Of a stretch of DNA of 64,000 nt, positions 1-36,308 are shown piece after piece (position 1 is the stretch's first letter; every line of letters starts with the position of its first letter). Source of the stretch: a virus. Position numbers and translations under genes: made by a program. The notes beneath the pieces are model-generated. The model was not told where the DNA came from, ran no database searches, and worked only from the letters and a program-made list of their open reading frames with translations. Where the stretch lies: positions 1 to 64,000 of the IMG/VR virus record IMGVR_UViG_3300017963_000220, one strand, 5' to 3'.

Positions 1-123
1 CCTGGAGCCCGGCCCTGGAGCCCGGCCCTGGAGCCCGGCCCTGGAGCCCGGCCCTGGAGCCCGGCCCTGGAGCCCGGCCCTGGAGCCCGGCCCTGGAGCC
101 CGGCCCTGGAGCCCGGCCCTGGA
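1..123. repeat. 13-bp tandem repeat (CCTGGAGCCCGGC), 9 full copies plus 6 nt, truncated by window start
   Basis: The only T of the unit recurs at 3,16,29...120 (period 13). Copies are perfect; unique sequence starts at 124. Confidence 0.95.
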
Positions 124-125
124 AT

Positions 126-190
126 AAGGTTTGATTGGTATCAGATCAAAGCTAACCCTTTGATTTCATGGTTCAATTCCATGGTAGCCT
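126..190 (+). ncRNA. tRNA-like element TLS0 (weak closing stem)
   Basis: Hairpin TTTGAT-N9-ATCAAA (130-150). T-arm CATGG-TTCAATT-CCATG (167-183). Lies 19 nt upstream of GGAGG (209-213). Confidence 0.35.
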
Positions 191-218
191 ATCGGTGAAA
201 CACATATTGGAGGAAAAC

Positions 219-539
219 ATGGCCAAGCAAGAGACAACAGAGACCGTCGAACACGTCGAATTCACCAGGGTAGACGCAGGCGTTTACGCTGTTCCCCTCG
301 GTCAGCTCGTCAAGGACGACGACGGCTGTCGAGGGCACCTAGTCGAGATCGTGTACGCTGACTACACAGGTTTTCATGCCTGTGGGGTCGTCGTGGACCT
401 TTCCGACGACGTGGGCGAGCCGCTGTATCGGGCAGTCCGGTATAACAACTGGCTCGGCGCTGACGAAGATGATGTCAGCACGGCATACTACGACTCGTTG
501 GAGGACGCGGCGAGAGCCACCTATCCCGACGCAGCGTAG
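219..539 (+). CDS. hypothetical early protein
   Basis: ORF 168..539 trimmed to ATG219, 5 nt after GGAGG (209-213). Confidence 0.55.
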   Translation: MAKQETTETVEHVEFTRVDAGVYAVPLGQLVKDDDGCRGHLVEIVYADYTGFHACGVVVDLSDDVGEPLYRAVRYNNWLGADEDDVSTAYYDSLEDAARATYPDAA

Positions 540-554
540 TCGGTCTACATTCAA

Positions 555-618
555 GTCACGGCTCAAGGCGAGATCGCCCCGAAAGGGCGGCAGGTGGGTT
601 CGATTCCCACGCGTGGCG
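555..618 (+). ncRNA. tRNA-like element TLS1
   Basis: Closing stem GTCACG(555-560)/CGTGGC(612-617). Hairpin CGCCC-cgaaa-GGGCG (575-589). T-arm GTGGG-TTCGATT-CCCAC (594-610). Confidence 0.55.
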
Positions 619-639
619 CTAAGGTGAAATGGAGGACAA

Positions 640-1062
640 ATGAATAGTCAAGCATTGAACGCTGTTCTGGAATCTATGGAAGAACGGTGTGAATGGTGTG
701 GCAGTAAACACGTGTCGTTTGAGGCTTTGACAGGGGATACTTTGTGTACCTGCTGCCAGGGTTTAGCGACATGGCTTGTTGAGTCACTAGATGATGAGGC
801 ACTATTTTGTGGGCCTAATTCTCCTAGTGTATCGGCTTGTAGGGTCTTGGCAGAAGCCTTCCGTAGTTTGAATAAGGCTACTGGGTACCTGTCGAAGGAA
901 CTAAAAGCCCTGCTCGATGAGGAGTGTGACGGGGGTTTTGGGGAATTCGATCCTCATATGCCGCGCATAGCCCAGATTCACGCCGAGTACATGGATTCAA
1001 CATGGGATATCGTCCACGTAGACTGGCAAACTAAGACGGTCACATGGGGGCGTGTCTACTAG
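640..1062 (+). CDS. hypothetical Cys-rich (zinc-ribbon-like) protein
   Basis: GGAGG at 631-635. Contains CEWCG...CTCC cysteine pairs. Confidence 0.6.
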   Translation: MNSQALNAVLESMEERCEWCGSKHVSFEALTGDTLCTCCQGLATWLVESLDDEALFCGPNSPSVSACRVLAEAFRSLNKATGYLSKELKALLDEECDGGFGEFDPHMPRIAQIHAEYMDSTWDIVHVDWQTKTVTWGRVY

Positions 1063-1123
1063 ACTCGAATGGTAACCCCACGGGGGCAACCCCGTGGGGT
1101 GGGGGTCCGATTCCCTCACGAGT
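1063..1123 (+). ncRNA. tRNA-like element TLS2
   Basis: Closing stem ACTCG(1063-67)/CGAGT(1119-23). Perfect 10-bp hairpin with GCAA tetraloop (1076-1099). T-arm GGGGG-TCCGATT-CCCTC (1101-1117). Confidence 0.55.
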
Positions 1124-1146
1124 AATCGGTGAATAGGAGGATGCAA

Positions 1147-1473
1147 ATGAAAAAGCGTCACAAGGAGAATGATTACGAGATAATCGTCCGTGAGCGTGAG
1201 GTGGCAACCCTCGATGAGGAGCTACCTGATGATCTCGTCGATACCTTGAGAAAGGTTATCATCGAAGCAGTAACGTCTCACCCGGATTTCCAACCGGATG
1301 ACGACGAGATCTTGGAGACGCTCAAGGAGCACATGGAAGACGCCATCCAAGGCGCGTTTTCCGAGGCTATTGACGACACAGCAAAAGCTCTCTTTATCAA
1401 GAGAGGGCGTGTGGCGGATATGGCGCAAGGTGTCCTAACGGATGTCGTCGAGGATATGACGACGTACTGGTAG
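1147..1473 (+). CDS. hypothetical acidic protein
   Basis: ORF 1129..1473 trimmed to ATG1147, 6 nt after AGGAGG (1135-1140). Confidence 0.55.
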   Translation: MKKRHKENDYEIIVREREVATLDEELPDDLVDTLRKVIIEAVTSHPDFQPDDDEILETLKEHMEDAIQGAFSEAIDDTAKALFIKRGRVADMAQGVLTDVVEDMTTYW

Positions 1474-1492
1474 CAGTTTCCCTTACAGCGTG

Positions 1493-1556
1493 GCCACGGC
1501 TCGAGGCGAGATCGGCTCGAAAGGTCGGCAGGTGGGTTCGATTCCCACGCGTGGCT
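1493..1556 (+). ncRNA. tRNA-like element TLS3 (paralog of TLS1)
   Basis: GCCACG(1493-98)/CGTGGC(1550-55). Hairpin CGGCT-cgaaa-GGTCG (1513-27) keeps pairing relative to TLS1 through G-U wobbles. T-arm 1532-1548. Confidence 0.55.
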
Positions 1557-1580
1557 CTAAGGTGAAATGGAGGTAGAGAA

Positions 1581-1814
1581 ATGCCTTATCCCAAGCAGGT
1601 AAGGATGGTTTTCAGTGGTAATTTAGATATTGGGCTAATACTCGAGCAACTCAGGTACGCTGGTTGTTTGACGTATGACGCCGATTCTGAGGAGGGCAGA
1701 CTAACTTTAGTGGTCAATCCCCCTCGGGGTGTCAATATCAAAAGGTGGGCTAGTCAGACGGCAGAGCGACCTAAGTCGTTTGGTGTGGTTACTGAGATTA
1801 TCACTAATCTATGA
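1581..1814 (+). CDS. hypothetical protein
   Basis: ORF-track entry with GGAGG upstream (1569-1573). Confidence 0.5.
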   Translation: MPYPKQVRMVFSGNLDIGLILEQLRYAGCLTYDADSEEGRLTLVVNPPRGVNIKRWASQTAERPKSFGVVTEIITNL

Positions 1815-1817
1815 TTT

Positions 1818-1876
1818 GATCTGATGGAGATCACGGGGGGCCAGCAATGGCCCCCCGTGGGAGGTTCGATTCCTCT
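1818..1876 (+). ncRNA. tRNA-like element TLS4 (no clear closing stem)
   Basis: GATC-N7-GATC hairpin (1818-32). 12-bp hairpin with GCAA loop (1832-1859). T-arm GGAGG-TTCGATT-CCTCT (1860-1876). Confidence 0.45.
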
Positions 1877-1901
1877 ACAAGTCGCCGAAAGGAGGTAGCA
1901 T

Positions 1902-2168
1902 ATGGCTATCGTAAGAGACAAGAGGGTTGTGGAAACCAAAGATGACGGCATGAGCTTCAAGGCGTGGATGAGTATTATCAACGCCTTGGTAGGCAGGTTC
2001 TACGGCTGTTCGCTGTATGATCTCCCGGACATGATGTTTCGGGACGCATACGACGGTGGTGATTCACCGCTCGATTTCTTCAATGAGTACGTAGCAGAGG
2101 AGATCGAGTCCTCGGGCTTTGGCGATATCGTTGAGAATGTCGTATACAAGCCCAAGGAGGCAGCGTGA
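1902..2168 (+). CDS. hypothetical protein
   Basis: AAAGGAGG lies 6 nt upstream of the ATG. Confidence 0.6.
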   Translation: MAIVRDKRVVETKDDGMSFKAWMSIINALVGRFYGCSLYDLPDMMFRDAYDGGDSPLDFFNEYVAEEIESSGFGDIVENVVYKPKEAA

Positions 2169-2386
2169 TGGCTTGGCTAACAGTGGTTCCGGCCTATGGC
2201 CGAGATTACAAGTCGGCTAAGGCAGCCAAGGTGGATTGGGAGTCGGGAAAAGACTTTCAGATCGCCGACATCTCCAGCCCGGACAACGGCAGATACGTGT
2301 CAAAGAACGATCTCGAGGGGTCGAATATTGACACCGTAAAGGTCAGGTTCGGCAAGCTGGCGAAGGTTACCACGATCAAGGTCTAG
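2165..2386 (+). CDS. hypothetical protein
   Basis: GTGATG overlap with the upstream stop, suggesting translational coupling. Confidence 0.5.
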   Translation: MMAWLTVVPAYGRDYKSAKAAKVDWESGKDFQIADISSPDNGRYVSKNDLEGSNIDTVKVRFGKLAKVTTIKV

Positions 2387-2510
2387 TCCCCAATGGGGGA
2401 TGGCGCAAAAAACGGCTTAGGCTTCCGGGTCTAGTTCGGGGTCAGTATGACCCAAGGGCCTGTGCGCTCTCCTCCTTTCACCGAGGACTAGGCCCGAGAG
2501 TTTGAGCAGG

Positions 2511-2564
2511 GGCGGTGATGATCTGAAAAGGATCATATCAGGTTCGTGACCTGACCGTCCCGCC
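2511..2564 (+). ncRNA. tRNA-like element TLS5 (divergent T-arm)
   Basis: GGCGG(2511-15)/CCGCC(2560-64). GATC-N7-GATC hairpin (2518-2536). CAGGT-tcgtg-ACCTG (2539-53). Confidence 0.4.
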
Positions 2565-2580
2565 GGGAAAGGAGGGACAA

Positions 2581-2979
2581 ATGGAAATCAAGTCCTTCGA
2601 CAGCATGGAGGAGATGTTCGAGGAGCTGGATAACCAGCGAAAAGCCGCCGATGATCGTGTGGAGCCGTGGCAGAGGAAACTCAGACCGGGCGATTACGCG
2701 GTTAGGTGGTTTGAGGGCATTACCATCTACTCGGAAATCCTTCGACCGTCCTCTGAGGACAGAGCCTTATATAAACAGCCGCATATGAAGCATTTCAGGC
2801 TTACGCGGTCGTATTCGGTCGTCTGTCCAGAGGGGGAGATTGGTGACGTTCACGTCAGCACTTTCCATCACCTCTGTGACGCGAAACAGTGGGAACGAGC
2901 GGTTGAAAAGGGATTTCCGAGCGAGATGCAGGACGTATACTACGTCGTTCGTGGTGAATATCCTCCACATTCCTGTTAG
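2581..2979 (+). CDS. hypothetical protein
   Basis: AAAGGAGGG upstream of the ATG. Confidence 0.6.
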   Translation: MEIKSFDSMEEMFEELDNQRKAADDRVEPWQRKLRPGDYAVRWFEGITIYSEILRPSSEDRALYKQPHMKHFRLTRSYSVVCPEGEIGDVHVSTFHHLCDAKQWERAVEKGFPSEMQDVYYVVRGEYPPHSC

Positions 2980-3007
2980 ACAAAGCATGTATCATAGCTC
3001 TGGTGAG

Positions 3008-3038
3008 ACCCTACGGGGTAGCCGGGTCCGATTCCCGG
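3008..3038 (+). ncRNA. tRNA-like element TLS6 (hairpin plus T-arm only)
   Basis: ACCC-UACG-GGGT hairpin with a UNCG-type loop (3008-19). T-arm CCGGG-TCCGATT-CCCGG (3022-38). Confidence 0.4.
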
Positions 3039-3081
3039 CTGTGATGTGTCAGGGCGCACAGAAGCGCGAAAGGAGACTGAA

Positions 3082-3639
3082 ATGAAGCTGAAGATGGGTA
3101 GTAAGAAGGCAAAGAAGTCCAAGGCTAAAAAGCCTGAGGCTAAGAAGAAGCCAGAGGTTCAGCGGCGGAAGTCGAAGCGAGCAACGGCCCAAGGGCCGCT
3201 CTTTGAGCGGGCTCGAAAGGTTGATGACGCTCTCCAGGCAGCTATTGACTTGGTTACCTCGGTAGCCAATGAGATGGACACTTGGAGCGCCGCTGATGGC
3301 AACGCTTTACGCGAAGTCGCGAATTCTCCGGATTCTTCCATGTTCTGGGATCACACTATGCGTGAACTGGGGCGTGAGGTCTCGGGAACGGCTCTGTTGA
3401 AAGACGCAGCCACACAGGCTATCAAGCTGACGAATCAGTTGGTTTGGTACCAGTGGGCCTTCACCGCCGTGGCAGCGTATGACGCGGCGAAAGCGGCTCA
3501 GGCGGCGAAAGCGGCTCAGAAGCCCAAGAAGGCTCAGAAGCCCAAGAAGGCAAAGAAAGCCAAGGCCGGAAAGCCCTCCAAGAAAAAGCAACCCAAAAAG
3601 GCATCAAAACTCAACCTGAAGAAGAAAAAGAAAAAGTGA
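3082..3639 (+). CDS. Lys/Ala-rich basic protein with histone-H1-like tails
   Basis: ORF 3046.. trimmed to ATG3082 after AAAGGAG. N-terminus MKLKMGSKKAKKSKAKK. C-terminus is AKAAQ/KPKK repeats ending KKKKKK. Confidence 0.6.
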   Translation: MKLKMGSKKAKKSKAKKPEAKKKPEVQRRKSKRATAQGPLFERARKVDDALQAAIDLVTSVANEMDTWSAADGNALREVANSPDSSMFWDHTMRELGREVSGTALLKDAATQAIKLTNQLVWYQWAFTAVAAYDAAKAAQAAKAAQKPKKAQKPKKAKKAKAGKPSKKKQPKKASKLNLKKKKKK

Positions 3640-3648
3640 GTCCTGACA

Positions 3649-3697
3649 GCGTGTAGGGTGCAAGGCCCAATGGAGAGGTTCGATTCCTCTCCCACGC
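3649..3697 (+). ncRNA. tRNA-like element TLS7
   Basis: GCGTG(3649-53)/CACGC(3693-97). Small GCAA-loop hairpin. 7-bp T-arm GGAGAGG-TTCGATT-CCTCTCC (3672-92). Confidence 0.5.
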
Positions 3698-3742
3698 GCC
3701 GAGCCCCAATGGTGGGGCATTTACAAGTAGTAGGAGGAGAAT

Positions 3743-4207
3743 ATGGCCCGTAGGAAGAAGAACAAGAACTCCAAGAAGCAAGCTCCGCCCCCTCCCCCGC
3801 CTGAAGAGGTAGAGGAGGAAGAAGCAGAGGAAGAGGAGGAAGCTGAAGAGGAGGACGAGGAAGAGGCCGAAGACGAAGACGACGAAGCAGAAGAAGAGGA
3901 GGAAGAGGAGGAAGAAGAGCCTCCGCCCCCTCGGAAGAAGCATCGTGGGAAAGTCTGGATCGATGAGCTTCATCTCATCCACCACGACGGAGCACTCTAT
4001 CTCTCTACCGATCCCCTGGCGTTCATCAAGGAATCGCTGGGCGATGTGGAGCCAGCAGAGCTGAATGATCAGCTCGAGGAGTTCAAGGTCGCGAGGCTCG
4101 TGCAATGGGACGAGCTAGAGATCGAGGACGGGGACGAGCTGGAATTCGCAGATATCACTGATGTCTGTGATATCCAGTTCTCCGACTGGGATCTCTCCTG
4201 GAAGTAA
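3743..4207 (+). CDS. polyacidic protein (~55-residue Glu/Asp tract)
   Basis: AGGAGGAG upstream. N-terminus MARRKKNKNSKK, then a PPPPPP-EEVEEEE...EEEE-PPPP tract. Confidence 0.6.
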   Translation: MARRKKNKNSKKQAPPPPPPEEVEEEEAEEEEEAEEEDEEEAEDEDDEAEEEEEEEEEEPPPPRKKHRGKVWIDELHLIHHDGALYLSTDPLAFIKESLGDVEPAELNDQLEEFKVARLVQWDELEIEDGDELEFADITDVCDIQFSDWDLSWK

Positions 4208-4226
4208 GCACCTTATTCCCCCCACA

Positions 4227-4268
4227 GGGGGTGGGGTGATCGAAGTCAGATCACCCCACCCCCATTTT
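4227..4268 (+). terminator. rho-independent terminator built on a GATC-N7-GATC hairpin
   Basis: 15-bp stem GGGGGTGGGGTGATC / GATCACCCCACCCCC, 7-nt loop, then ATTTT. Confidence 0.7.
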
Positions 4269-4317
4269 AGCAGTGTTGGGTATTCAGGCCCATAGAGGTT
4301 CGATTCCTCTAAACGCT
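4269..4317 (+). ncRNA. tRNA-like element TLS8
   Basis: T-arm TAGAGG-TTCGATT-CCTCTA (4293-4311). Imperfect closing stem AGC..GTT/AACGCT. Follows the terminator at 4227-4268. Confidence 0.4.
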
Positions 4318-4332
4318 AGAAAGGAGGACAGC

Positions 4333-4731
4333 ATGTCCGATATCAAAATAAGCCCTAAACATGGGCTGAATCCGTCTGTAACGGTGTGTTTCTTCTGTGG
4401 CAAGAGCGTCGGCGTGGCGATCTGTGGTCACCTGAAAGGTGATCAGGAAGCCCCACGCACAATGATGTCTTATCCAGAGGAAGCCTGTGACGAGTGTAAG
4501 GATTGGATGACGAAGGGTATTTACCTGGTAGGCATCGATCCTGAGCGCTCCGACCCTAAGAAGGGTCTGAACGGTTTCTACCGCTCAGGGCAGTGTACTG
4601 TTGTCAGTGAAGAGGCGTTTCGTCGGTTGTTCGACGGAGGAGCTGAAGCCGTGAAGTTCGGCTTGAAGCATCGTTGGACCTTCATTGATGGGACTATGTT
4701 GGCCCAGATAATAGACGCATCGACAGACTAA
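4333..4731 (+). CDS. hypothetical zinc-ribbon protein
   Basis: ORF 4273.. trimmed to ATG4333 after AAAGGAGG. Contains CFFCG and CDEC pairs. Confidence 0.6.
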   Translation: MSDIKISPKHGLNPSVTVCFFCGKSVGVAICGHLKGDQEAPRTMMSYPEEACDECKDWMTKGIYLVGIDPERSDPKKGLNGFYRSGQCTVVSEEAFRRLFDGGAEAVKFGLKHRWTFIDGTMLAQIIDASTD

Positions 4732-4738
4732 CGTAATA

Positions 4739-4830
4739 GACCACGAGAGCGGACTAACCAACCGCTCATGGGAGCACACAATTTCAGGAGTCGTTGTGTG
4801 ATCGCTGGTTCAAATCCAGCCGTGGTCACC
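4739..4830 (+). ncRNA. tRNA-like element TLS9 (four-arm cloverleaf-like, non-canonical)
   Basis: 7-bp acceptor GACCACG(4739-45)/CGTGGTC(4821-27) followed by A-CC. D-like arm AGCGG-N9-CCGCT. 7-bp stem with 12-nt loop (4775-4800). T-arm GCTGG-TTCAAAT-CCAGC. Confidence 0.6.
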
Positions 4831-4844
4831 GAAAGGAGGGTGTG

Positions 4845-5327
4845 ATGGGCATCCATAATAAAAAGACTAACCGGGAGTTGTTGGAGTTGTACTTCGACAC
4901 GGCGGCACAGCTCGTCGAGGTACAAAAGGATCTGGACGTAATAATCCAAGAATTCCAAGAGCGTGGAATAGCACAGATTGACCTAACAGCTCCGAAAATC
5001 TTTGTGGGCAACAACGGTAAAGGTTCTTTGGTGTCTGAGGATACCGAGGCAGAGGTAGCTTGGAAAGAGCTACAGGACGCTCGAAAGCACCGATCCAAAA
5101 AGACCCTCAAGAATGGGAAGAATGGGCAACCTACATTCCGTGGTCGTGGAGATATCTCGAAGAACATCTACGATCTACTTAGCTCAGGCAGAGCTACAGG
5201 AAAGGAACTAGCCGCGACCCTCGAGCTTACCCCGAAACAGGTGAGCAATTCTTTGTCGCTACTCAAGCGGCGGGGCTTGGTGGAGAAGACGCCAGGCTTT
5301 GACAGAGTGTGGCAAGTTACTGAATGA
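4845..5327 (+). CDS. putative winged-helix DNA-binding protein
   Basis: ORF 4794.. trimmed to ATG4845 after AAAGGAGGG. C-terminus GKELAATLELTPKQVSNSLSLLKRRGLVEK looks MarR-like. Confidence 0.5.
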   Translation: MGIHNKKTNRELLELYFDTAAQLVEVQKDLDVIIQEFQERGIAQIDLTAPKIFVGNNGKGSLVSEDTEAEVAWKELQDARKHRSKKTLKNGKNGQPTFRGRGDISKNIYDLLSSGRATGKELAATLELTPKQVSNSLSLLKRRGLVEKTPGFDRVWQVTE

Positions 5328-5333
5328 GTGAAC

Positions 5334-5392
5334 GCCCTGGGTGATCCTACTCAGATCACTGTGAGCCAGGTTCGGACCTGGCCAGGGCACCA
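5334..5392 (+). ncRNA. tRNA-like element TLS10 (D-armless mini-tRNA shape with encoded ACCA)
   Basis: 7-bp acceptor GCCCTGG(5334-40)/CCAGGGC(5382-88). Anticodon-arm-like GTGATC-ctactca-GATCAC (5341-59). CCAGG-ttcgga-CCTGG (5366-81). Then A-CCA (5389-92). Confidence 0.65.
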
Positions 5393-5407
5393 TGAAAGGA
5401 GGGTATA

Positions 5408-5728
5408 ATGGCCCTTAGAGTGACGAATGTGGAGCACTTCCACAAGGTTCTGGAAGAGTTGGCTGAACAACCAGATTTCGACCAGCTACACAAGGCGTTC
5501 GAGAAGCAGGTGAAATACCTTCACCATTACAACCCAAAAATGTTCGATGTCGAGGTAGGCTACGACATGGCAAAATGGAGCTTCTCGATCTACTGGGTGA
5601 AGAAGGGTAAGAACGAAGTCTATATGAATGGCGGTCTTATCTACCACCCAGGTGCCCGTGAGGCTGACCGTTCGTTGTCGGTTGAGCTAAACTATGACAG
5701 TGAGCCGCATTGGAGTGTACACACATGA
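5408..5728 (+). CDS. hypothetical protein
   Basis: AAAGGAGGG upstream. Confidence 0.6.
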   Translation: MALRVTNVEHFHKVLEELAEQPDFDQLHKAFEKQVKYLHHYNPKMFDVEVGYDMAKWSFSIYWVKKGKNEVYMNGGLIYHPGAREADRSLSVELNYDSEPHWSVHT

Positions 5729-6009
5729 AGATCAAAGTGGGGACATACACAGCCGCCAAAGGTGAGAACTACGGCATGAACGCTTTGTACGTTCAAGCCG
5801 GAAGTCTGACGGTCTGGTTTAGCTACGATACTATCATAGCATTCCAAGATGGAGTGGAAGACCGCGTGGGTTTATCAAACCCAGCGGGGAGCACTACGGC
5901 AAAGCATCTTGGTCTGGTGTGTCCAGAGTATCGCCTGGCTCAAGACGATTTCGACAAAGCTCTACACGCCGCTTTTGACAAGCATGGTGTGTGGATAGAA
6001 AAGGATTGA
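5725..6009 (+). CDS. hypothetical protein
   Basis: ATGA overlap with the upstream stop (ATG5725 / TGA5726-28). Confidence 0.5.
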   Translation: MKIKVGTYTAAKGENYGMNALYVQAGSLTVWFSYDTIIAFQDGVEDRVGLSNPAGSTTAKHLGLVCPEYRLAQDDFDKALHAAFDKHGVWIEKD

Positions 6010-6012
6010 GTC

Positions 6013-6252
6013 ATGACGTATGGTCAGACGAGAAACATTCGTCTACTTGAGGATCGAACAAAGGAGATGGAATCTCACCTCGAGTTTCTCGAAGAGCAGA
6101 TTGAAGACTATGAAAGCTTGGTCTTCAAGCTGGCTAATTTCTATGACGTTCCACCAGACTTCAAGGCGGAAACCTATGGGCTGAACGCAGATGAGGCTGA
6201 GTACCTCTACTGTGTTCTAAACCCCGATCCTGAAATAGATGAGGAGGATTGA
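6013..6252 (+). CDS. hypothetical acidic protein
   Basis: Starts 3 nt after the previous stop. Confidence 0.5.
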   Translation: MTYGQTRNIRLLEDRTKEMESHLEFLEEQIEDYESLVFKLANFYDVPPDFKAETYGLNADEAEYLYCVLNPDPEIDEED

Positions 6253-6257
6253 AAGCA

Positions 6258-6304
6258 AGCGTAGCCAGAAGGTGGCTAGGCGGGTTCGACTCCCGCCTAC
6301 GCTA
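6258..6304 (+). ncRNA. tRNA-like element TLS11 (minimal)
   Basis: 7-bp acceptor AGCGTAG(6258-64)/CTACGCT(6297-6303). Short hairpin CCA-gaagg-TGG. T-arm GCGGG-TTCGACT-CCCGC (6280-96). Confidence 0.6.
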
Positions 6305-6319
6305 TAGATAGGAGGCCAA

Positions 6320-8053
6320 ATGGTACATATCAGAAGGCAGTCTGTATGGTGTTACATCGATATGGAACGAAGTAACCCTCGGGCAGTCAAATGGCTCCAT
6401 ATGGTCCTGACTATCTCTACACAAGCCTATGTTAGAGGCAAGCTAGAGTTCTACAAACTCCGGCTTTTCGATCTACGAAGAAAGCGCTTTCCCGCTGGGC
6501 TACTAGGCACAGCGTATAGGCGTTTGAAACGTAAAGGGTATGATGTACAGGTCATAGATGACCGACCTGATCCACCTAAGATCAAACCACTACCTAAGAG
6601 CTGCTCACACCTATATGACTACCAGAAGGCCGCCGTAAGGGCGTGTCTGAAGCGTAGACATGGCATCGTAAGGATCGCCACAGGTGGGGGTAAAACTGAA
6701 GTAGCGGTGGGCCTGGCAAGTCGGGTGAATTGTCCGACACTGTTTCTGGTCGATGAGCGCTCTCTGGTACAGCAAGCTCGAGAGCGTTGGGCCAAGATAA
6801 CAGGTAAGCCAGCCGGTATCATAGGAGAGGGCAGGTTTGAGCCTAACATGGAGTTCACAGTAGCCACGCTACAGACACTCCAACGACGGCTCAAGCGAGC
6901 AGATCCAGCGCTAGTCGCGTATCTACTCGAGGTAGGTTGTCTGATAGTAGACGAGGCGCACGTATTGGGCGCTAAGACCTACTACCGGACAGTCATGTCT
7001 ATCCCCAACGCATACTATCGTATTGGTCTATCAGCCACCCCCACGGGGCGGTCAGACCAGCGAGACGCTTATGTGATTGGGGCAATGGGACCTATCATCT
7101 ACAAAGCTACCATCGAAAAGTTGGTGGAACAGAAGAAGCTAGCAAAGGCTCTGGTGTTATTCTACCGATATCCTGGAGCGCTCAACCTGGAGGACTACTC
7201 AGCCAAGTGGCATCACTTGTACCTGATGGGTATGGTGAGAGAGGCCGCCAGGAATCGAGCTATCATCAGGATTTGCAAGATTACACCGAGGCCGATTCTG
7301 GTCTTCTTTGACAGGAAGGCACACGGGTGGATACTCAAGGATCTACTCGAGGAACAAGGCTACAATGTAGAAATAGTCTATGGCATCCATAAGGGAGAAG
7401 AACGACTCAAGCTGGCCCGTCAACTCGGGTCTGGCGAACTAGACGTATTGTTGGCATCAAAGGTTTTCAACAAGGGGGTGGACATCCCTGAGATTCGGTC
7501 GGCTGTGAACGCGGCTGGTTACAAAGCGGCGATCACATCCATGCAAAAGCTGGGACGACCAATGAGAGTCTCTGACGGTAAGGTGCAATTTGTGTACTGG
7601 GATACCGTTGATGACCACCATCCTACACTACTCCGACACTCGAGGTATCGAGCAAGGATCTATAAAAGAGAAGGTCTCGAGCTACGGCTTGTAGACTCTC
7701 TGAAAGAGGCCGTCGAAATACTGGGTGAGGTGGGCATGATTTACAAGGTTCCTTGGTACGCGCCAAGGGACTGGCTGGATCTAACCTACGAGGAGTTTGC
7801 AAATGGGTTGGGAACCGTGGTTGAGGACACAGGAGGAGAGGACAATGGCAGACGAGAAGAGGACATATCTCATCTCTCTAACGGATCGGGAATGCGCAGC
7901 GGTGCAAGAATTGGTCAGATACAGCCTCGATTCTCTCGCTGGGGTGGACAAAAACGACACCGTGGTAGAGAAATGGCGGAAGACCATCTTAGCCGTACAA
8001 GCAAAAGTCGACAACCCAAAGGTGGGGCTCGTTCAGGCGTCAGAAGCTCTTAG
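6320..8053 (+). CDS. SF2 DEAH-box DNA helicase
   Basis: Motif I ATGGGKTEVA, motif II IVDEAH, motif III LSATP, motif VI QKLGRPMR. TAGGAGG upstream. The last ~70 aa overlap the next gene out of frame. Confidence 0.85.
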   Translation: MVHIRRQSVWCYIDMERSNPRAVKWLHMVLTISTQAYVRGKLEFYKLRLFDLRRKRFPAGLLGTAYRRLKRKGYDVQVIDDRPDPPKIKPLPKSCSHLYDYQKAAVRACLKRRHGIVRIATGGGKTEVAVGLASRVNCPTLFLVDERSLVQQARERWAKITGKPAGIIGEGRFEPNMEFTVATLQTLQRRLKRADPALVAYLLEVGCLIVDEAHVLGAKTYYRTVMSIPNAYYRIGLSATPTGRSDQRDAYVIGAMGPIIYKATIEKLVEQKKLAKALVLFYRYPGALNLEDYSAKWHHLYLMGMVREAARNRAIIRICKITPRPILVFFDRKAHGWILKDLLEEQGYNVEIVYGIHKGEERLKLARQLGSGELDVLLASKVFNKGVDIPEIRSAVNAAGYKAAITSMQKLGRPMRVSDGKVQFVYWDTVDDHHPTLLRHSRYRARIYKREGLELRLVDSLKEAVEILGEVGMIYKVPWYAPRDWLDLTYEEFANGLGTVVEDTGGEDNGRREEDISHLSNGSGMRSGARIGQIQPRFSRWGGQKRHRGREMAEDHLSRTSKSRQPKGGARSGVRSS

Positions 8054-8183
8054 ACGCTCGTTACGGGCCTCAGACCATCTGGGCTTTTCCCGCGATTCTG
8101 AGGAGCTTAGGTGTCCAGAGTGCGGCCTCGAACGACATGAATCGCTTGAGGTCAAATGTCCTAATTGTGGCTACGTGGAGTAA
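7845..8183 (+). CDS. hypothetical protein with C-terminal zinc ribbon
   Basis: ORF 7797.. trimmed to ATG7845 after GGAGGAGAGG. Contains CPECG...CPNCG. Confidence 0.5.
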   Translation: MADEKRTYLISLTDRECAAVQELVRYSLDSLAGVDKNDTVVEKWRKTILAVQAKVDNPKVGLVQASEALRRSLRASDHLGFSRDSEELRCPECGLERHESLEVKCPNCGYVE

Positions 8184-8191
8184 GTAGCTGT

Positions 8192-8256
8192 AGCCCTGGG
8201 TCGCTGGTAGTGGTACAGCGCACTGTGAGCTGGGTTCGGCCCCAGTCAGGGCTCCG
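8192..8256 (+). ncRNA. tRNA-like element TLS12
   Basis: AGCCCTG(8192-98)/CAGGGCT(8247-53). Hairpin CGCTG-N9-CAGCG (8202-20). CTGGG-ttcggc-CCCAG (8230-45). Confidence 0.6.
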
Positions 8257-8270
8257 AAAGGAGGGCTAGT

Positions 8271-8489
8271 ATGGAAGCAGCCCAGTGTAAGCTTATGGCA
8301 CAGTTTATATCGTCATTCTTCTGTCTTCTAACGAAGAACGATGGCAGGAGTATTGAGTATGTAATTACGTACTTTCGCGACGAATTTGTTCCAGATAAGC
8401 ATAAGGCGTTGTGGGATAACACATTTCTGGCGGTTTGTGATTCCGAAGGTGTGGAGTTCTATCCTAGGAGGGTAGAAAATGGCAAGTAA
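8271..8489 (+). CDS. hypothetical protein
   Basis: AAAGGAGGG upstream. Confidence 0.5.
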   Translation: MEAAQCKLMAQFISSFFCLLTKNDGRSIEYVITYFRDEFVPDKHKALWDNTFLAVCDSEGVEFYPRRVENGK

Positions 8490-8679
8490 CAAACCTGAGG
8501 CTATCAGGGAGTGGGCTATACAGGCTCTTTCCAGATCGCTGATATCTCCAGAAGAGCACGTGAAGCTTTTGAAAGCCGCTAAGGAAGTGATCCAAGATGG
8601 TGGCTTCAGGGGTGATGTGTGTGACAGATGGAGGAGCATGGGTTACGGCTCTGACAAGATCGAGGATTTCTATCCGTAG
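8479..8679 (+). CDS. hypothetical protein
   Basis: 11-nt overlap with the upstream ORF; AGGAGGG at 8465-8471. Confidence 0.45.
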   Translation: MASNKPEAIREWAIQALSRSLISPEEHVKLLKAAKEVIQDGGFRGDVCDRWRSMGYGSDKIEDFYP

Positions 8680-8684
8680 ACGTT

Positions 8685-8744
8685 AGCCCTGGGTGATCTG
8701 AGCAAGATCACTGTGAGCTGGGTTCGGCCCCAGTCAGGGCTCCG
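8685..8744 (+). ncRNA. tRNA-like element TLS13 (paralog of TLS10 and TLS12)
   Basis: AGCCCTG(8685-91)/CAGGGCT(8735-41). GATC-N7-GATC arm (8693-8711). Same tgtga linker and T-arm as TLS12. Confidence 0.65.
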
Positions 8745-8756
8745 AAAGGAGGAACA

Positions 8757-8984
8757 ATGCCCAAATATGTTTCCGTATCCTTCTACAAGGATGGGAAAAT
8801 GAGGACATATTCGAGATGTATGTTGAAGCAGGACGCTCAGGAAGTTGTAAAACAATTTATCCGAGATGGTGTTTCTGCTGGTACAGCCGAATTATCTCCA
8901 GCGAGGATACGTGAGCCCGACGAGTGGTCTTATGTATCCTTTCACAGGCGAGGCGGCAGAGGTGGTCCAGTACCATTTCCGTAA
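8757..8984 (+). CDS. hypothetical protein
   Basis: AAAGGAGG upstream. Confidence 0.5.
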   Translation: MPKYVSVSFYKDGKMRTYSRCMLKQDAQEVVKQFIRDGVSAGTAELSPARIREPDEWSYVSFHRRGGRGGPVPFP

Positions 8985-9118
8985 CCGACTCCCCCTCCCC
9001 CGTACCCCCTCCCCCACCCTAGACTACCCCCCTAAAGGGGGGTAGCTCTAGGGTGTGTGGGTGGAGGAGCAAAGATATACCCGAAAGTTTTTTATAAAAA
9101 ATTTTTCTAAGAGATAAC

Positions 9119-17569: not shown

Positions 17570-17857
17570 TTGAACCGGAAGTTTTTGGTCTGGAAATATC
17601 TCGTGAGCTGTGGCTTCAGTCACAGGAAAGCAAGAGATATTTGGAACAAGGAAATCTACCCCAAGATAACCAATGACTGGAACGCGCAAGATATCATCCG
17701 AGCCATCAAAGATGGCTGGGACCAACAGGAACTTGAAGACATGAAAGGGTCGCAAGATGAAACTCAAAGGACTGAAGAAAGCGAAAAAGGGTGGGAAGAG
17801 CAAGAAGAAGACCGCCAAGATCGAGTCGATTCCGCCCGAGAACATCCTCATCTGTGA
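17570..17857 (+). CDS. hypothetical protein
   Basis: TTG17570 lies 9 nt after TAGGAGG (17554-60). The acidic tail overlaps the next gene by 101 nt. Confidence 0.4.
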   Translation: MNRKFLVWKYLVSCGFSHRKARDIWNKEIYPKITNDWNAQDIIRAIKDGWDQQELEDMKGSQDETQRTEESEKGWEEQEEDRQDRVDSAREHPHL

Positions 17858-19070
17858 GGCTACCGGCAACAAGGTACGCTTCAACAAAGAGGACGCTCTC
17901 AAGGCGTGTATCGCTGGTGAGCGTCGAGTGTTTTCCTCACGTGAGGTGGCGGCGGGTCACAAGGAGATCGAGGACGCAAAGGGTGTTCGTCACGTTCACC
18001 GAAATTGTATCTTCGCTGATCCGAACAAGAACGTTCGACGCTTCTCCATCAAGGCGGCTGAGTTCCTGGACCTGATGGAATCCATCAAGGAAGAGGGCAT
18101 TCTTCAGCCTCTTCTCGTCCATCGGAACGCGGATCACCTTCCGGCCTTGTACGAGCTTCGAGCTGGCTTCCGTCGGTTCGAGGTGGCCAAGAAGATCGAC
18201 CTGGAGCACATTCCTATCGTGATTCTGGACGATGAGGTCAACCCCAAGGTCGCTGGTATCCTCGAGAATCTCCGTGAGGATATGAAGCCCATCGAGATGG
18301 CTACGGCAATCAAGGCTATCATGGATGAGGGTATCATCGACAAGAAGACCGGGAAGAAGATGAAGTTGTCTCAGCGCAAGGTCGCTAAGATGATCGGTGT
18401 CTCCCAGTCTCGTGTCTCTGATCTCCTCGGCTTGGTGGGTGACCTTCATACGAAGGTATCCCGCGCCGTCACCGATGGTGAGCTTCCCGTGAGCAAGGCC
18501 GCGCTGTTGAAACAGCTTCCGCCGAAGGCCCAGGTCAAGGGCCTCAAACTCGCCTCGGATCTCGACGTGAAGGATCTCCGCAAGTACGTTCAGGACACTC
18601 GTGAGTCGCTCGGACTTCCGCCGCCCGCTCATCAGGCGAAGCCCGCGAAGACCCAGATGAAGGGCAGGAAGTTCAAGGTTCGTCCGGTGGGTGAGCTGTT
18701 CGACGCCTGTCTCGCCGCTGAGAAAGCCTACTTCAAGGGTAAGGGCAAGAAGTCGGTCACAAAGAAGACCGTCGTCGCTGTCCTTCAGTGGCTCGGTGGG
18801 ATGATCGAGAAGCCGACCGACGATCCCGTGGACCCCGTGGAGTTTCAGCGGAAGGTTGAGGAGGAGGCCGAGCGGAAGAAGCAGGAGCGTCTCGAGAACC
18901 TGAAGAAGGGCCGCGAGGCTCGGAAGGCCAAGATCGCGAAGAAGAAGAAGGGTGGCGGAAAGAAAGCCGCCAAGGGCAAGAAGAAGCCACCCGCCAAAGG
19001 GAAGGCGAAAACCAACAAGGCCAAGCTCCCCAAGGTGAAGACCAAGAAGAAGGCCAAGGGTAAGAAATAG
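17757..19070 (+). CDS. ParB-like protein (ParB N-domain plus HTH) with Lys-rich termini
   Basis: EGILQPLLV and LRAGFRRFEVAK (ParB/Srx box). HTH LSQRKVAKMIGVSQSRVSDL. N-terminus MKLKGLKKAKK. Confidence 0.7.
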   Translation: MKLKGLKKAKKGGKSKKKTAKIESIPPENILICEATGNKVRFNKEDALKACIAGERRVFSSREVAAGHKEIEDAKGVRHVHRNCIFADPNKNVRRFSIKAAEFLDLMESIKEEGILQPLLVHRNADHLPALYELRAGFRRFEVAKKIDLEHIPIVILDDEVNPKVAGILENLREDMKPIEMATAIKAIMDEGIIDKKTGKKMKLSQRKVAKMIGVSQSRVSDLLGLVGDLHTKVSRAVTDGELPVSKAALLKQLPPKAQVKGLKLASDLDVKDLRKYVQDTRESLGLPPPAHQAKPAKTQMKGRKFKVRPVGELFDACLAAEKAYFKGKGKKSVTKKTVVAVLQWLGGMIEKPTDDPVDPVEFQRKVEEEAERKKQERLENLKKGREARKAKIAKKKKGGGKKAAKGKKKPPAKGKAKTNKAKLPKVKTKKKAKGKK

Positions 19071-25693: not shown

Positions 25694-26685
25694 CGCGAGT
25701 GTTCCTGGCTGATGAAGCCTCTCCAGTGGTGACAAGGTACAAGAACATAGGAGACATAGACTTCTCTGTGAGACTTCTCTTGACATGCACAGGTTCGGCG
25801 CGGTCTCGAGCGCGTATTATGGCTCGAGCCTGTGACGCTCTACAGCCTCAGAGTCTCTTTGTGGATTCTGGCGCTTTTGTGTTACGCAGCGCTTTCTACA
25901 AACATGGTAAGCTCCCGTCTGTTTCAGAGGCCGAGGAGATCATCAGGAATCATCTGGGCTCTTGTGTTTGGCTGGTAGAGCATAAATATCCTCTCGAAGC
26001 CGTAGCCGAGTTGGACTTGCCTGATATCTATGGCGAGGACATCAATGAGCGCTGGCGAGAGAAATATTTCTACCCATTCCAGGAGCAGACTGGTGTACCT
26101 GTTGTTCTAGCGGTACACGGGAGTGTCAAATGGGAGGCTGTCATAGAGAATCCCCGGCTCAAGTATCTGGGGATGTCGGCGGCGATGAACAAGAAAACTA
26201 TTGCTGCTAGCTATGGCTCCTATGAGGGTTACGTCAAGTTCATGAGAAACATCGCTGAAATTTGCTACCTGGCTGGCGTGAAGTTTCACGGCTACGCTGT
26301 GACGCGCTCGAGTCTCTTGAGGAGGGTACCATACTACTCCTGTGATAGTGTTACCTGGCAACAGGCTTTACACTTCGGCGGAGCTATGGCGTTCGACGAG
26401 TCATCAGGGAACCTGGTACGTGTGGACGCTGGGAAGTCTCTCGTCAAGAACAAGGGAGCAAAGAAGCTAGCTATGAATATCGTCAAGATTCAGAGTCATG
26501 GGTCACGGCTCAGACCTCTGGATGTCATTGGACGAGAGAAGATAAAAGGTCGCCCTCGGGCTGACCATCATGCAATATTCCATGATCAAGCCCGAGTCTT
26601 TTCCCAGATGGAGACCTACTTCACCAAGTTCTGGAAGCTCAAGGGCTTTGACTGGGAACAGCAACTCGAGGACCACGGACGATGA
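25690..26685 (+). CDS. dpdA: DpdA-like DNA-guanine transglycosylase (TGT superfamily)
   Basis: LFVDSGAF resembles the TGT DSGGF catalytic-Asp motif. Located between queD and queE. Size ~330 aa. Confidence 0.6.
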   Translation: MTRVFLADEASPVVTRYKNIGDIDFSVRLLLTCTGSARSRARIMARACDALQPQSLFVDSGAFVLRSAFYKHGKLPSVSEAEEIIRNHLGSCVWLVEHKYPLEAVAELDLPDIYGEDINERWREKYFYPFQEQTGVPVVLAVHGSVKWEAVIENPRLKYLGMSAAMNKKTIAASYGSYEGYVKFMRNIAEICYLAGVKFHGYAVTRSSLLRRVPYYSCDSVTWQQALHFGGAMAFDESSGNLVRVDAGKSLVKNKGAKKLAMNIVKIQSHGSRLRPLDVIGREKIKGRPRADHHAIFHDQARVFSQMETYFTKFWKLKGFDWEQQLEDHGR

Positions 26686-27503
26686 AGGTACAGAAGAAGA
26701 AAAAGACGAAAAAGAAAAAGCTGAAATTGAAGCTGCCCGAGCGGGTCAGACTAAAAGCTGGCCAGTTTGTGGAGCTACCAGGTGGTCTCATCATAGGCGA
26801 GGTTCCGCTCGAGAAGATTGAGCATCGAAAGGTTCGCTTTCGACGTATGGATTCATTACAGCTTGGCGCTCTCAAGGAATCCATTGAGCGTCTGGGTGTG
26901 AAGGACCCTGCCTTGGTGGTTCCCAACAAGAAGGGTGGCTTTGACCTTGTGGATGGTCACCATCGCGAGGACGAGATCTCTGCTCAAGGTGGAGAGTCTA
27001 TTCCTGTGGTGGTACTCACCGACAAGGAAGGTGAGCTAGTGACAGCCAAAGAGGCTGACCTGGCTATGCACCGCTTCAACATTTCAGCTCATACAGATGG
27101 AGAGAACTTTCTTCAGGTACTCCATGAGATGCACGGATCAGGTATCTCCATCGAAGACATCGCGAAGGCCACAGCCAAAGACGTCGCCTCCATTTCTGAG
27201 ATGGTCGAAGCTTTTACAGCAGACCTCGAAGAAGACGATGACGATGAGGACGACACCAGAGGCGGGGCCGGTTCAGGTGGGAGTCGTTATGACTCGGCTA
27301 CTGCTTTCGGCGCGGCTGAGAATGACGAACCAACACATGAATCCTCACGTGGGATTCCCTTGATTTTGCAGCTACCAGGGACAGATGATGTCCGAGAGCT
27401 GTTGAGTAGGGCTGTAGAACTGTTCAAATCTTCCTCTACCTCTGAGGCGGTAGTGGAAGCCTTGCGTGTAGTCGTTGGAAGAAACGACGAAGGAGAAGAG
27501 TAA
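26682..27503 (+). CDS. ParB N-terminal-domain protein (DpdB-like position)
   Basis: GVKDPALVV...FDLVDGHHR (ParB/Srx domain). ATGA-coupled to the dpdA-like gene. N-terminus MKVQKKKKTKKKKLKLKL. Confidence 0.6.
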   Translation: MKVQKKKKTKKKKLKLKLPERVRLKAGQFVELPGGLIIGEVPLEKIEHRKVRFRRMDSLQLGALKESIERLGVKDPALVVPNKKGGFDLVDGHHREDEISAQGGESIPVVVLTDKEGELVTAKEADLAMHRFNISAHTDGENFLQVLHEMHGSGISIEDIAKATAKDVASISEMVEAFTADLEEDDDDEDDTRGGAGSGGSRYDSATAFGAAENDEPTHESSRGIPLILQLPGTDDVRELLSRAVELFKSSSTSEAVVEALRVVVGRNDEGEE

Positions 27504-36084: not shown

Positions 36085-36308
36085 TGGGTCGTAACCCTGG
36101 GGGAAACCTATAACCAAAGGTGAATACACCACAGCACCATTCTATCCCAAGAAAACGAGACCATTGTTGTCTTGGTGATGGTGGGAAAAAATCCCTAAAA
36201 CACGGAAAACTGATTGAGGTTCTGCCGCCCCTCTTCACTGAGGCCAAACTCCCCAGGGTCAGGGGGAGAGGGGCGGCTCCTTTACTTCCTTACATAAGGA
36301 GGGCCGCA
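36085..36308 (+). promoter_or_regulatory. structured ~220-nt leader upstream of thyX
   Basis: Nested inverted repeats (36225-34 / 36267-76). CTCCTT (36277-82) is complementary to the SD AAGGAG (36296-301). Confidence 0.45.

Follow-up and report, generated by a model that had tools for sequence, protein, structure and literature searches.

An array of 14 tRNA-like elements lies between the early genes of an uncultured tailed phage recorded in IMG/VR as IMGVR_UViG_3300017963_000220, one in every early gap of more than 40 nt. The stretch of DNA analysed here (the window) comprises positions 1 to 64,000 of that record and is part of a genome of ~96 kb, which a second contig (L006) represents in permuted form (95.7 kb). 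It is strongly supported that the elements, designated TLS1 to TLS14, mimic, as + strand RNA, the acceptor/T-arm half of a tRNA: a 12-bp stack, the T-loop consensus, NCCA or NCCG in register with the stack, covariation, G-U pairs and the loss of signal on the reverse strand all bear out this structural claim, which a preliminary description of the DNA had made from the letters alone. We lean towards the view that these elements punctuate a ~9-kb early polycistron for processing of the RNase P/RNase Z type.

tRNA-like elements between the early genes

The left 9 kb of the window contain 19 small co-oriented open reading frames (ORFs) and a helicase gene, with nearly all large ORFs of the window being located on the + strand. 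Between positions 126 and 8756 there are 14 gaps of >40 nt, and each of the 14 contained one + strand element, in agreement with the preliminary description, which had placed a tRNA-like module in every real early gap. The elements start −3 to +18 nt relative to the upstream stop codon (11/13 cases) and end 5–12 nt 5′ of the GGAG of the next Shine-Dalgarno (SD) sequence (11/14), and the order of stop codon, element and SD sequence in all 14 gaps places a tRNA-like fold directly between cistrons, as in a punctuation-type signal.

The array is far beyond chance. The sequence GGTTCRANTCC was found nine times in the window versus 0.28 expected, with eight occurrences on the + strand, all intergenic, between 170 and 6293; two further gaps contain GGTCCGATTCC, and four have variant T-loops. 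A strict descriptor, consisting of a T hairpin with an adjacent acceptor stem of at least 6 bp and a sum of 11–13 bp, matched 10 + strand copies in the first 8.75 kb and one site elsewhere, on the − strand, versus 1.69 matches in shuffled windows (64 kb, both strands). When folded without constraints for minimum free energy (MFE), all 14 elements were closed by a stem that encloses one or two internal hairpins and, immediately before its own 3′ strand, a T hairpin; the fold z-scores ranged from −0.8 to −4.5 (−2.4 or lower in 9/14). The individual elements are as follows, where R2 and R3 are the covariance models described below.

TLS1: 127..190, + strand; atypical; acceptor AGGUU/AGCCU (5 bp, one bulged U); internal hairpin; T arm 166-184, + strand (UCAUGG-UUCAAUU-CCAUGG); z −1.55; missed by model R3
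TLS2: 555..617, + strand; acceptor GUCACG/CGUGGC; internal hairpin with CGAAA loop; T arm 594-610 (UUCGAUU); paralog of TLS4
TLS3: 1063..1123, + strand; acceptor ACUCG/CGAGU directly 3′ of a UAG stop codon; AAUGGUAA linker; 11-bp hairpin with GCAA loop; T arm 1100-1118 (UCCGAUU); z −3.8
TLS4: 1492..1556, + strand; acceptor GGCCACG/CGUGGCU; T arm 1532-1548; R2 E=0.016 before its entry into training
TLS5: 1812..1884, + strand; cloverleaf-like, four-way; acceptor UGAUUUG/CAAGUCG overlapping the UGA stop codon; GAUC-N7-GAUC hairpin; 12-bp hairpin with GCAA loop; T arm 1860-1876, followed by CCG fused to AAAGGAGG; z −4.5; R3 E=0.35
TLS6: 2509..2561, + strand; acceptor GGGGCGG/CCGUCCC; GAUC-N7-GAUC hairpin; T-like arm 2538-2554, + strand, variant loop UUCGUGA; tail GCCG; z −3.8; R3 E=1.1
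TLS7: 2991..3045, + strand; acceptor AUCAUAG/CUGUGAU; small hairpins including one with a UACG tetraloop; T arm 3022-3038 (UCCGAUU); partial R3 match, E=0.5
TLS8: 3649..3697, + strand; acceptor GCGUG/CACGC with a 7-bp T stem (3672-3692, UUCGAUU); tail GCCG; z −3.4; R3 E=0.11
TLS9: 4272..4317, + strand; minimal, 46 nt; acceptor AGUGUU/AACGCU; short GGGU...GCCC hairpin; T arm 4293-4311; z −2.4
TLS10: 4739..4827, + strand; cloverleaf-like; acceptor GACCACG/CGUGGUC (7 Watson-Crick pairs); two internal hairpins; T arm 4804-4820, + strand (UUCAAAU); tail ACCG fused to AAAGGAGG; z −4.4
TLS11: 5334..5392, + strand; type B; acceptor GCCCUGG/CCAGGGC; GAUC-N7-GAUC hairpin; UGUGA linker; T-like arm 5366-5381, + strand, 6-nt loop UUCGGA; ACCA at 5389-5392; z −3.1
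TLS12: 6258..6303, + strand; minimal, 46 nt, upstream of the helicase gene; acceptor AGCGUAG/CUACGCU; 5-bp hairpin; T arm 6280-6296, + strand (UUCGACU); z −3.1
TLS13: 8193..8256, + strand; type B; acceptor GCCCUGG/UCAGGGC; D-arm-like hairpin GCGCUG-GUAGUGGUA-CAGCGC; UGUGA linker; T-like arm 8230-8245, + strand (UUCGGC); tail UCCG fused to AAAGGAGG
TLS14: 8686..8744, + strand; type B; GAUC-N7-GAUC middle arm, otherwise like TLS13; tail UCCG fused to AAAGGAGG; z −2.8

The individual details of the preliminary description were also recovered, namely the GCAA loops at 1086 and 1844, the UACG loop at 3012 and the CGAAA loops at 580 and 1518, the C-G to G-U and U-G changes in the internal hairpin of the paralogs at 555 and 1492 (TLS2 and TLS4), and the acceptor, UGUGA linker and T arm common to the elements at 5334, 8193 and 8686, with the qualification that the middle arms of the form GUGAUC...GAUCAC reproduce a DNA palindrome found throughout the genome (see below). 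Some elements are accompanied by plain hairpins, located at 3054-3067, at 3703-3718, where it separates TLS8 from the SD sequence, and at 4227-4263, where a 37-nt palindromic hairpin precedes TLS9.

Resemblance to the acceptor/T-arm half of tRNA

Acceptor and T stem form an uninterrupted stack of 12 bp in 11/14 window copies and of 11 bp in the other three, and of the 39 distinct copies collected from seven phages (see below) most also have the 12-bp stack, split as 7+5, 6+6 or 5+7. Real tRNAs of phage tRNA clusters, which served as positive control, fit the same stack descriptor. The T-loops had been described as matching the tRNA consensus, which holds for the 10/14 window copies with a UUCRANY loop closed by G53-C61, while the other four have variants (UUCGUGA at 2543, and the 6-nt loops UUCGGA or UUCGGC at 5371, 8235 and 8723).

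Directly 3′ of the stack and in exact register, NCC was present in 20/39 copies (p=1.5e-16), with CCA in 11/39 (p=5e-12) and CCG in 8/39. In the window the NCCA form is found once (1/14, ACCA at 5389) and NCCG in five copies (2562, 3698, 4828, 8253 and 8741). The final G of the NCCG at 4828, 8253 and 8741 is the first base of the SD sequence GAAAGGAGG; at 2562 two extra bases lie between tail and SD sequence, at 3698 a hairpin, and at 1885 a CCG lacking a discriminator base is continuous with AAAGGAGG. Many copies have a UGG-containing linker or mini hairpin 3′ of the 5′ acceptor strand that resembles a D-loop (AAUGGUAA at 1068, and GCGCUG-GUAGUGGUA-CAGCGC at 8201), but the enrichment is modest and this likeness to a D arm is suggestive only.

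The elements are outside tRNA, tmRNA and every Rfam family. At the Rfam gathering threshold there were no matches in the window, and E≤10 gave nothing relevant; the best score for the tRNA clan was 20.5 bits versus a gathering score of 47, and two copies reached ~20 bits against tRNA-Sec at E≤10. ARAGORN found no tRNAs in the window, either at default settings or with -ps90, and no tmRNA at default, which together with Rfam speaks against canonical tRNA genes with cloverleaf, D arm and an anticodon arm with 7-nt loop. A tmRNA, in which a tRNA-like domain is joined to a tag reading frame and pseudoknots, was also rejected as candidate, with the Rfam hits covering 17 nt of the T arm at 12–17 bits, and G3-U70 occurring in no copy. 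The relaxed ARAGORN searches proposed earlier had a mixed outcome: none were reported with -ps90, whereas -ps80 called 8/14 elements as low-score tRNAs, on a background of 0.66 per kb.

Those -ps80 calls, along with the tRNA-gene-like T arms and 3′ acceptor strands, are what might be expected if the elements were decayed tRNA genes or attP-like fragments of tRNA genes. We consider such an origin very unlikely, as default ARAGORN and Rfam at threshold were both negative and no integrase was found among the scanned phage proteins, while the elements occur one per gap in constant strand and register to stop codon and SD sequence. Furthermore, their 5′ acceptor strand is present and covaries, and the structure is kept across phages despite turnover of the sequence.

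Covariation and strand of the signal

Full-length MAFFT alignment was ragged at the 5′ acceptor strands, and pairing was therefore assessed via three routes: a stack-only alignment, RNAalifold on type-B elements, and iterative Infernal models (R1–R3). The stack-only alignment of the 39 distinct copies had 98.7% of its cells paired, with compensatory changes at 11 of the 12 positions. Its covariation score was 1.05 versus 0.21 for shuffled alignments (0/500 reached 1.05) and ≤0.20 for controls with slid partners, a result to be read with the caveat, which counts against our interpretation, that copies were picked partly by complementarity and that paralogs are non-independent. The two less biased tests agree with it. 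RNAalifold on a plain MAFFT alignment of type-B elements returned the same 6+6 pairs, with double changes in six, and the Infernal alignment had 96.8% paired cells and a covariation score of 0.66 versus 0.17.

The Infernal model was seeded on ten type-B sequences and iterated twice (R1 to R3), and recovered subtypes that had not been used for training, including the window elements at 555 (E=2e-6) and 6261 (E=0.002), L009 303, L016 259 and several L001 copies (these phages are described below). In the window, with filters off, the nine best R3 matches were all annotated elements and 12/14 elements were detected at E≤10; the earlier remark that no such element is present beyond 8.75 kb also stands, since the final model gave only noise-level matches in that part (E≥0.54). 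Model R3, trained on these elements only, matched probable tRNAs in phage tRNA clusters, which had been identified by descriptor, at E values of 0.03–0.09.

Matches of the R-models with E≤10 were on the + strand in 40/41 cases. The stacks contain 29 G-U pairs, and scoring of the reverse strand reduced 60–64 bits to ≤13, a drop of ~50 bits, and hence the signal is an RNA (or single-strand) feature of the coding strand. Of the checks proposed in the preliminary description, the covariance model and the covariation score gave covariation well above shuffles and a + strand signal that collapses on the reverse strand, unlike the equal conservation on both strands expected for a DNA site.

Sites acting at the DNA level, such as protein-binding sites, origin hairpins or cruciforms, nevertheless deserve mention, as the middle arms of four elements are copies of a palindrome that is found across the genome. 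This 17-bp sequence, T-GATC-TGA-N-TCA-GATC-A (GATC-N7-GATC), occurs 45 times versus 1.8 expected, or about once per 1.4 kb (at 1818, 2520, 4238, 5343, 8695, 9160, 11364 and on to 63466), while plain GATC is not enriched (320 versus 338). At least 28 copies are inside ORFs and the palindrome is therefore a DNA-level site, with its two GATC sites spaced one helical turn apart; in the early region the copies sit in gaps, where they form the middle arm of the four elements. It is dense in the related phages L001, L003 and L005 and absent from distant relatives. Candidate binders of the palindrome are a winged helix-turn-helix protein (4845-5327) and ParB-like proteins (17757-19070 and 26682-27503). 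As an explanation of the tRNA-like elements themselves, a DNA-level role is the most improbable of those considered, because the 29 G-U pairs of the stacks become A-C mismatches on the other strand, the asymmetric T-loop is always on the coding strand, and the scores of the reverse strand collapse.

Conservation in related phages

A protein search with the helicase and contig look-ups identified six further phages, and the arrangement seen in the window was found in relatives, as the preliminary description had proposed to check. In the 87.8-kb L001 (helicase 62% identical) the same arrangement comprises at least 13 elements, with NCCA-GUGAAAGGAG 3′ of many of them, and the acceptor and T stem of TLS10 are those of L001 12550-12655 (T-loop UUCGAUU in L001, UUCAAAU in TLS10). 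In L005, six type-B cassettes that are nearly identical and end in ACCA accompany two other elements, and elements were also present in L009, L015 and L016; more distant relatives had none. Orthologous copies display changes that maintain pairing, with two compensatory double changes in the T stem between the window element at 8686 and L009 2816, and an acceptor G-U replaced by G-C between the element at 8193 and L009 2252. Upstream of the helicase gene of L009 (81% identity), the orthologous site holds a tRNA-like element of unrelated sequence, with conserved SD sequence and start region. An additional element found by the model in L001 (13400-13449) has a degenerate T-like loop (AUCGUA) and has kept its ACCA end, which indicates that the loop sequence can drift while stack and CCA are retained.

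The exchange of one element for another at that orthologous site could reflect recombination or mobile cassettes resembling the promoter-early/stem-loop (PeSL) cassettes of T4-type phages, which would shuffle small early genes and in which the fold would be incidental or ancestral, a notion not exclusive of other functions. Near-identical copies of whole gaps do flank unrelated genes (six in L005, and 555/1492 and 5334/8193/8686 in the window), and the early proteins of the window lack paralogs, whereas the gap cassettes have them. Most copies are alike in structure and not in sequence, however, which makes them poor substrates for homologous recombination; no σ70-like promoter is present inside, and the compensatory changes signify selection on pairing. 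We therefore regard this as an improbable account of the array.

In L003 and L045 (45–50% identity) only one or two tRNA-like elements were found, and the other gaps contain long hairpins flanked by GATC. These hairpins, a second repeated element present in most early gaps of the two phages, are perfect and flanked by GAUCGGAAUCGGAUC...GAUC stems (L003 6248-8590; L045 1-112, 344-504 and 2634-2731). The long hairpins of L003 and L045, which would fit the features of an RNase III site, may be an RNase III-type counterpart of the tRNA-like elements.

The main rival to processing by tRNA enzymes is that the elements are generic insulators or stabilisers, which would block 5′-3′ and 3′-5′ exonucleases and Rho loading and keep the SD sequence single-stranded without involvement of any tRNA enzyme. 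The plain hairpins in equivalent gaps of L003 and L045 show that the job may be possible without tRNA mimicry, which fits such a generic function and weighs against our preferred interpretation. The generic function also accords with the stability of the folds, the additional plain hairpins next to some window elements, and a 3′ edge at a fixed short distance from the SD sequence (5–12 nt to GGAG), often with a fused NCC-GAAAGGAGG. For insulation any hairpin would suffice, and the T-loop, the exact 12-bp stack and the in-register NCCA/NCCG, seen across copies with wholly different stems, are left unexplained; we consider this rival unlikely, although it is the one to be taken most seriously.

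Similar elements in unrelated viral contigs

Pattern scans of IMG/VR detected many non-tRNA minihelices of 40–64 nt in unrelated contigs (L050, L065, L076, L097, L126, L135, L153, L166 and L182-L298), none of them in Rfam. Each joins an acceptor to a T arm through a linker of ~10 nt, often N-CUGGUG-N or a very small hairpin with UGGU loop. Of the first 122 loose-pattern matches, 33 combined a perfect 12-bp stack with the absence of an ARAGORN call. Most are intergenic, and about half adjoin the end or start of a gene on the same strand. In IMG/VR, T-loop plus GTGAAAGGAG matched only the L001 phage and one att-like site, and the type-B core gave 14 single matches, of which L176 contains a type-B-like element.

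The 136-kb contig L120 (IMGVR_UViG_3300023440_000001) has no protein similarity to the window, and its small co-oriented genes have the same layout of stop codon, tRNA-like element and SD sequence, with elements at 4439-4484, 6116-6163 and 7032-7098, one of which was scored by R3 at E=6e-4. The design is thus not confined to the clade of the window phage. Reduced tRNA mimics of ~40–90 nt, composed of acceptor, mini D element and T arm, may conceivably represent a widespread uncatalogued class of phage RNAs that serves as general punctuation of host-takeover operons, in the ~90-kb clade and independently in at least one 136-kb phage, with processing also releasing a burst of small tRNA-like RNAs that act on the tRNA-binding machinery of the host, although we put this forward as a doubtful extension.

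Decoys or sponges were another function envisaged in the preliminary description. Within the mRNA or as freed RNAs of 45–90 nt, the elements would early in infection titrate host RNase P, the CCA-adding enzyme, EF-Tu, modifying enzymes or defence nucleases. The array comprises 14 copies in a region that is presumably transcribed first and most strongly, many enzymes recognise the portion of tRNA that is mimicked, and about half of the stand-alone mini-elements found with this design in unrelated phage contigs are not beside a gene start. Nevertheless, no support for decoys was obtained and they seem rather improbable, since the elements lack an anticodon arm and are therefore no bait for anticodon nucleases, a decoy has no need of strict placement of one copy per gap fused to the SD sequence, relatives substitute plain hairpins, and no tRNA-directed phage enzyme was present among ~46 scanned proteins. 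Searches with Pfam for RNase P, RNase Z, CCA-adding enzyme and RNA ligase were all negative for these ~46 proteins, with many small proteins being outside the scan.

Proposed processing of the early polycistron

No promoters of the σ70-like type, the one type scanned for, were present in the gaps; the four such sites in the region, versus 6.3 expected, are all within ORFs, and the gaps contain no match to a terminator consensus on the + strand. Upstream of the tandem repeat that precedes TLS1, L006 contains AT-rich promoter-like repeats, and the early region (~126-8984) appears to be one polycistron transcribed from promoters in that position.

RNase P, RNase Z and the CCA-adding enzyme are generally held to read the length of the acceptor/T stack, the T-loop elbow and the 3′ tail. 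Processing is favoured because the features conserved in the elements are those relevant to these three enzymes, and because the gaps are without σ70-like promoters or + strand terminators. From the observed structure, tRNA-specific features, strand, conservation and placement of the elements we infer cleavage and the enzymes acting on them, and cutting of the polycistron into monocistronic mRNAs, as first suggested in the preliminary description, is the explanation that fits best.

The RNA of bacterial RNase P pairs with the 3′ RCCA, which has been described as a block to RNase Z, and CCG would not block it. Host RNase P would cut at the 5′ edge of each module, and RNase Z would cut the CCA-less and CCG copies after the discriminator, while CCA copies would be trimmed by exonucleases. 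The products would be monocistronic mRNAs with a very short leader starting from the SD sequence or a few bases 5′ of it and with structured, stable 3′ ends, and processing may in this way also stabilise the early mRNAs.

Several observations weigh against processing by tRNA enzymes, in addition to the caveat on covariation and the plain hairpins of L003 and L045 mentioned above. The non-canonical T-loops of four window copies, three of which have a 6-nt loop without A58, may not form the tRNA elbow, and a full D arm is present in none of the copies. Bacterial RNase P has a preference for U at position −1; this nucleotide is A in 21/40 copies and can often pair with N73, which extends the stem to 8 bp.

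Borders of the early region and an anti-SD mimic

The early region is bordered by the following features, with a further motif located within it.

Tandem repeat: 1..122, + strand; 13-nt unit CCTGGAGCCCGGC, ~9.4 copies; 5′ leader directly upstream of the first element
Anti-SD mimic: 2467..2482, + strand; CUCUCCUCCUUUCACC, like the 3′ end of 16S rRNA; in the long gap upstream of TLS6
Hairpin closing the early region: 8985..9075, + strand; long, C-rich/G-rich, core CCCCCCUAAAGGGGGG at 9027-9042; without a U tract

The 13-nt repeat unit contains GCCCTGG, which is the 5′ acceptor strand of type-B elements, and its copy number varies between assemblies (L006 3770-3805). In L001 a CCCTGGCC(C) array is found at the equivalent position (~5350-5500). 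The C/G-rich hairpin is followed on its 3′ side by an AT-rich promoter-like stretch of the next operon, and in all relatives it stands where the early region gives way to the DnaB-helicase operon, being kept at L001 13560-13620, L003 11697-11740 and L045 5940-5975.

The anti-SD mimic CUCUCCUCCUUUCACC is complementary to SD sequences of the GGUGAAAGGAGG type and may provide translational control that processing could relieve. Pairing of 2467-2482 with the SD sequence at 2567-2575 across TLS6, by which translation would depend on processing, was considered and is not supported by the MFE fold. Anti-SD-like motifs were also observed in L001 (~6170-6190) and L120 (3417-3520), and that of L001 does pair with an SD sequence 3′ of a tRNA-like element in the MFE fold.

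The phage and its host

The gene content of the phage includes a PolA-UDG fusion, RecA, an SF2 helicase, a DnaB-like helicase, terminase and portal. Genes of 7-deazaguanine synthesis were also noted in the window, along with an MT-A70 methyltransferase and ThyX.

Radical-SAM (QueE-like) gene: 27959-28657
FolE2 gene: 29573-30373
QueC gene: 58104-58781
MT-A70 methyltransferase gene: 33800-34372
ThyX gene: 36120-37118

The first three of these genes point to 7-deazaguanine modification, the target of which is probably the phage DNA, and no DpdA/TGT-like gene was recognised among the scanned window proteins. The large terminase (TerL) is nearest to that of SPO1-like Bacillus phages (32–34% identity), which together with the very long SD sequences (GAAAGGAGG) suggests a Bacillota-like host. 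A profile search for the helicase in genome contigs returned one irrelevant contig of a metagenome-assembled genome and so identified no host, megablast of the early region against GenBank phages gave no nucleotide similarity, and an exact-peptide search with the helicase had no match in IMG/VR.

Comparison with known systems

The elements are best described as a reduced tRNA mimic serving operon punctuation, and the layout appears to be unreported: neither Rfam nor literature on tRNA-like elements in phages and on SP82/RNase III yielded a description of it, in line with the earlier statement that no such phage early operon has been described. As the design is found in unrelated viral contigs and is absent from Rfam, a new RNA family can probably be defined, which would be usable for annotating the early regions of uncultured phages. 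The ~40 covarying copies define its indispensable parts, namely the 12-bp stack, the T-loop and NCC, and if the elements are indeed cleaved they constitute a natural, minimal and highly diverse set of RNase P/Z substrates.

The preliminary description did not name the RNase III sites of T7 and SP82 early mRNA, which are functional analogues. RNase III processes intercistronic sites in the early mRNA of phage T7, and the Bacillus phage SP82 is a relative of SPO1. The early mRNA of SP82 is likewise cut by RNase III (Panganiban and Whiteley 1983, as cited in PMC4838370). Both systems share with the window structured intercistronic elements and, if processing occurs as proposed, a host endoribonuclease that generates monocistronic, stabilised early mRNAs; a link to SP82 is also provided by TerL, which places the phage nearest to the SPO1-like group, and by the long hairpins of L003 and L045 at equivalent gaps. 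An RNase III site is a mostly double-stranded hairpin of ~20 bp or longer, however, whereas the elements have closing and T stems of 5–7 bp in a three- or four-way junction together with a T-loop, implying RNase P/Z and not RNase III. If this is true, RNase P and RNase Z join RNase III as host enzymes recruited for phage early mRNAs.

Substrates of bacterial RNase P other than tRNA include the phage M3 RNA, the C4 antisense RNA of P1/P7, the tmRNA precursor and intercistronic regions of E. coli operons (PMC11143913). These too are acceptor/T-like mimics within phage or operon transcripts, but they are isolated and weakly tRNA-like, unlike the 14 window elements, which form a systematic array with T-loop, 12-bp stack and, in some copies, NCCA or NCCG. 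The elements also resemble the tRNA-like part of tmRNA and of the Y RNAs (YrlA) of bacteria and phages, which have an acceptor, a T arm and a reduced D element without an anticodon arm; the elements differ in lacking a tag region, G3-U70 and a Ro-binding stem, their Rfam matches are fragments of T-arm size at 11–17 bits, and they are embedded in mRNA instead of being separate genes. PeSL cassettes lie between small early genes of T4-type phages, and are comparable as repeated intergenic cassettes around unrelated small early genes, whereas the window has a tRNA-like fold and no σ70-like promoter in any gap.

Mitochondrial polycistronic transcripts are punctuated by tRNAs, and those of plant mitochondria also by 't-elements'. 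In both cases tRNA or tRNA-like folds lie between cistrons and RNase P and RNase Z release the mRNAs, and t-elements are, like the elements described here, reduced to acceptor and T arm. The differences are that the window derives from a virus of prokaryotes, that its folds are not functional tRNAs and are fused to SD sequences, and that cleavage is here deduced from the features of the elements. Synthetic polycistronic designs for guide RNAs and mRNAs use tRNA spacers from which RNase P and RNase Z free the units, and the window would offer a natural counterpart in a phage, built from reduced mimics. Confirmation of cleavage would make this the first known case of a phage operon with tRNA punctuation, an arrangement otherwise mitochondrial and copied by synthetic biology.

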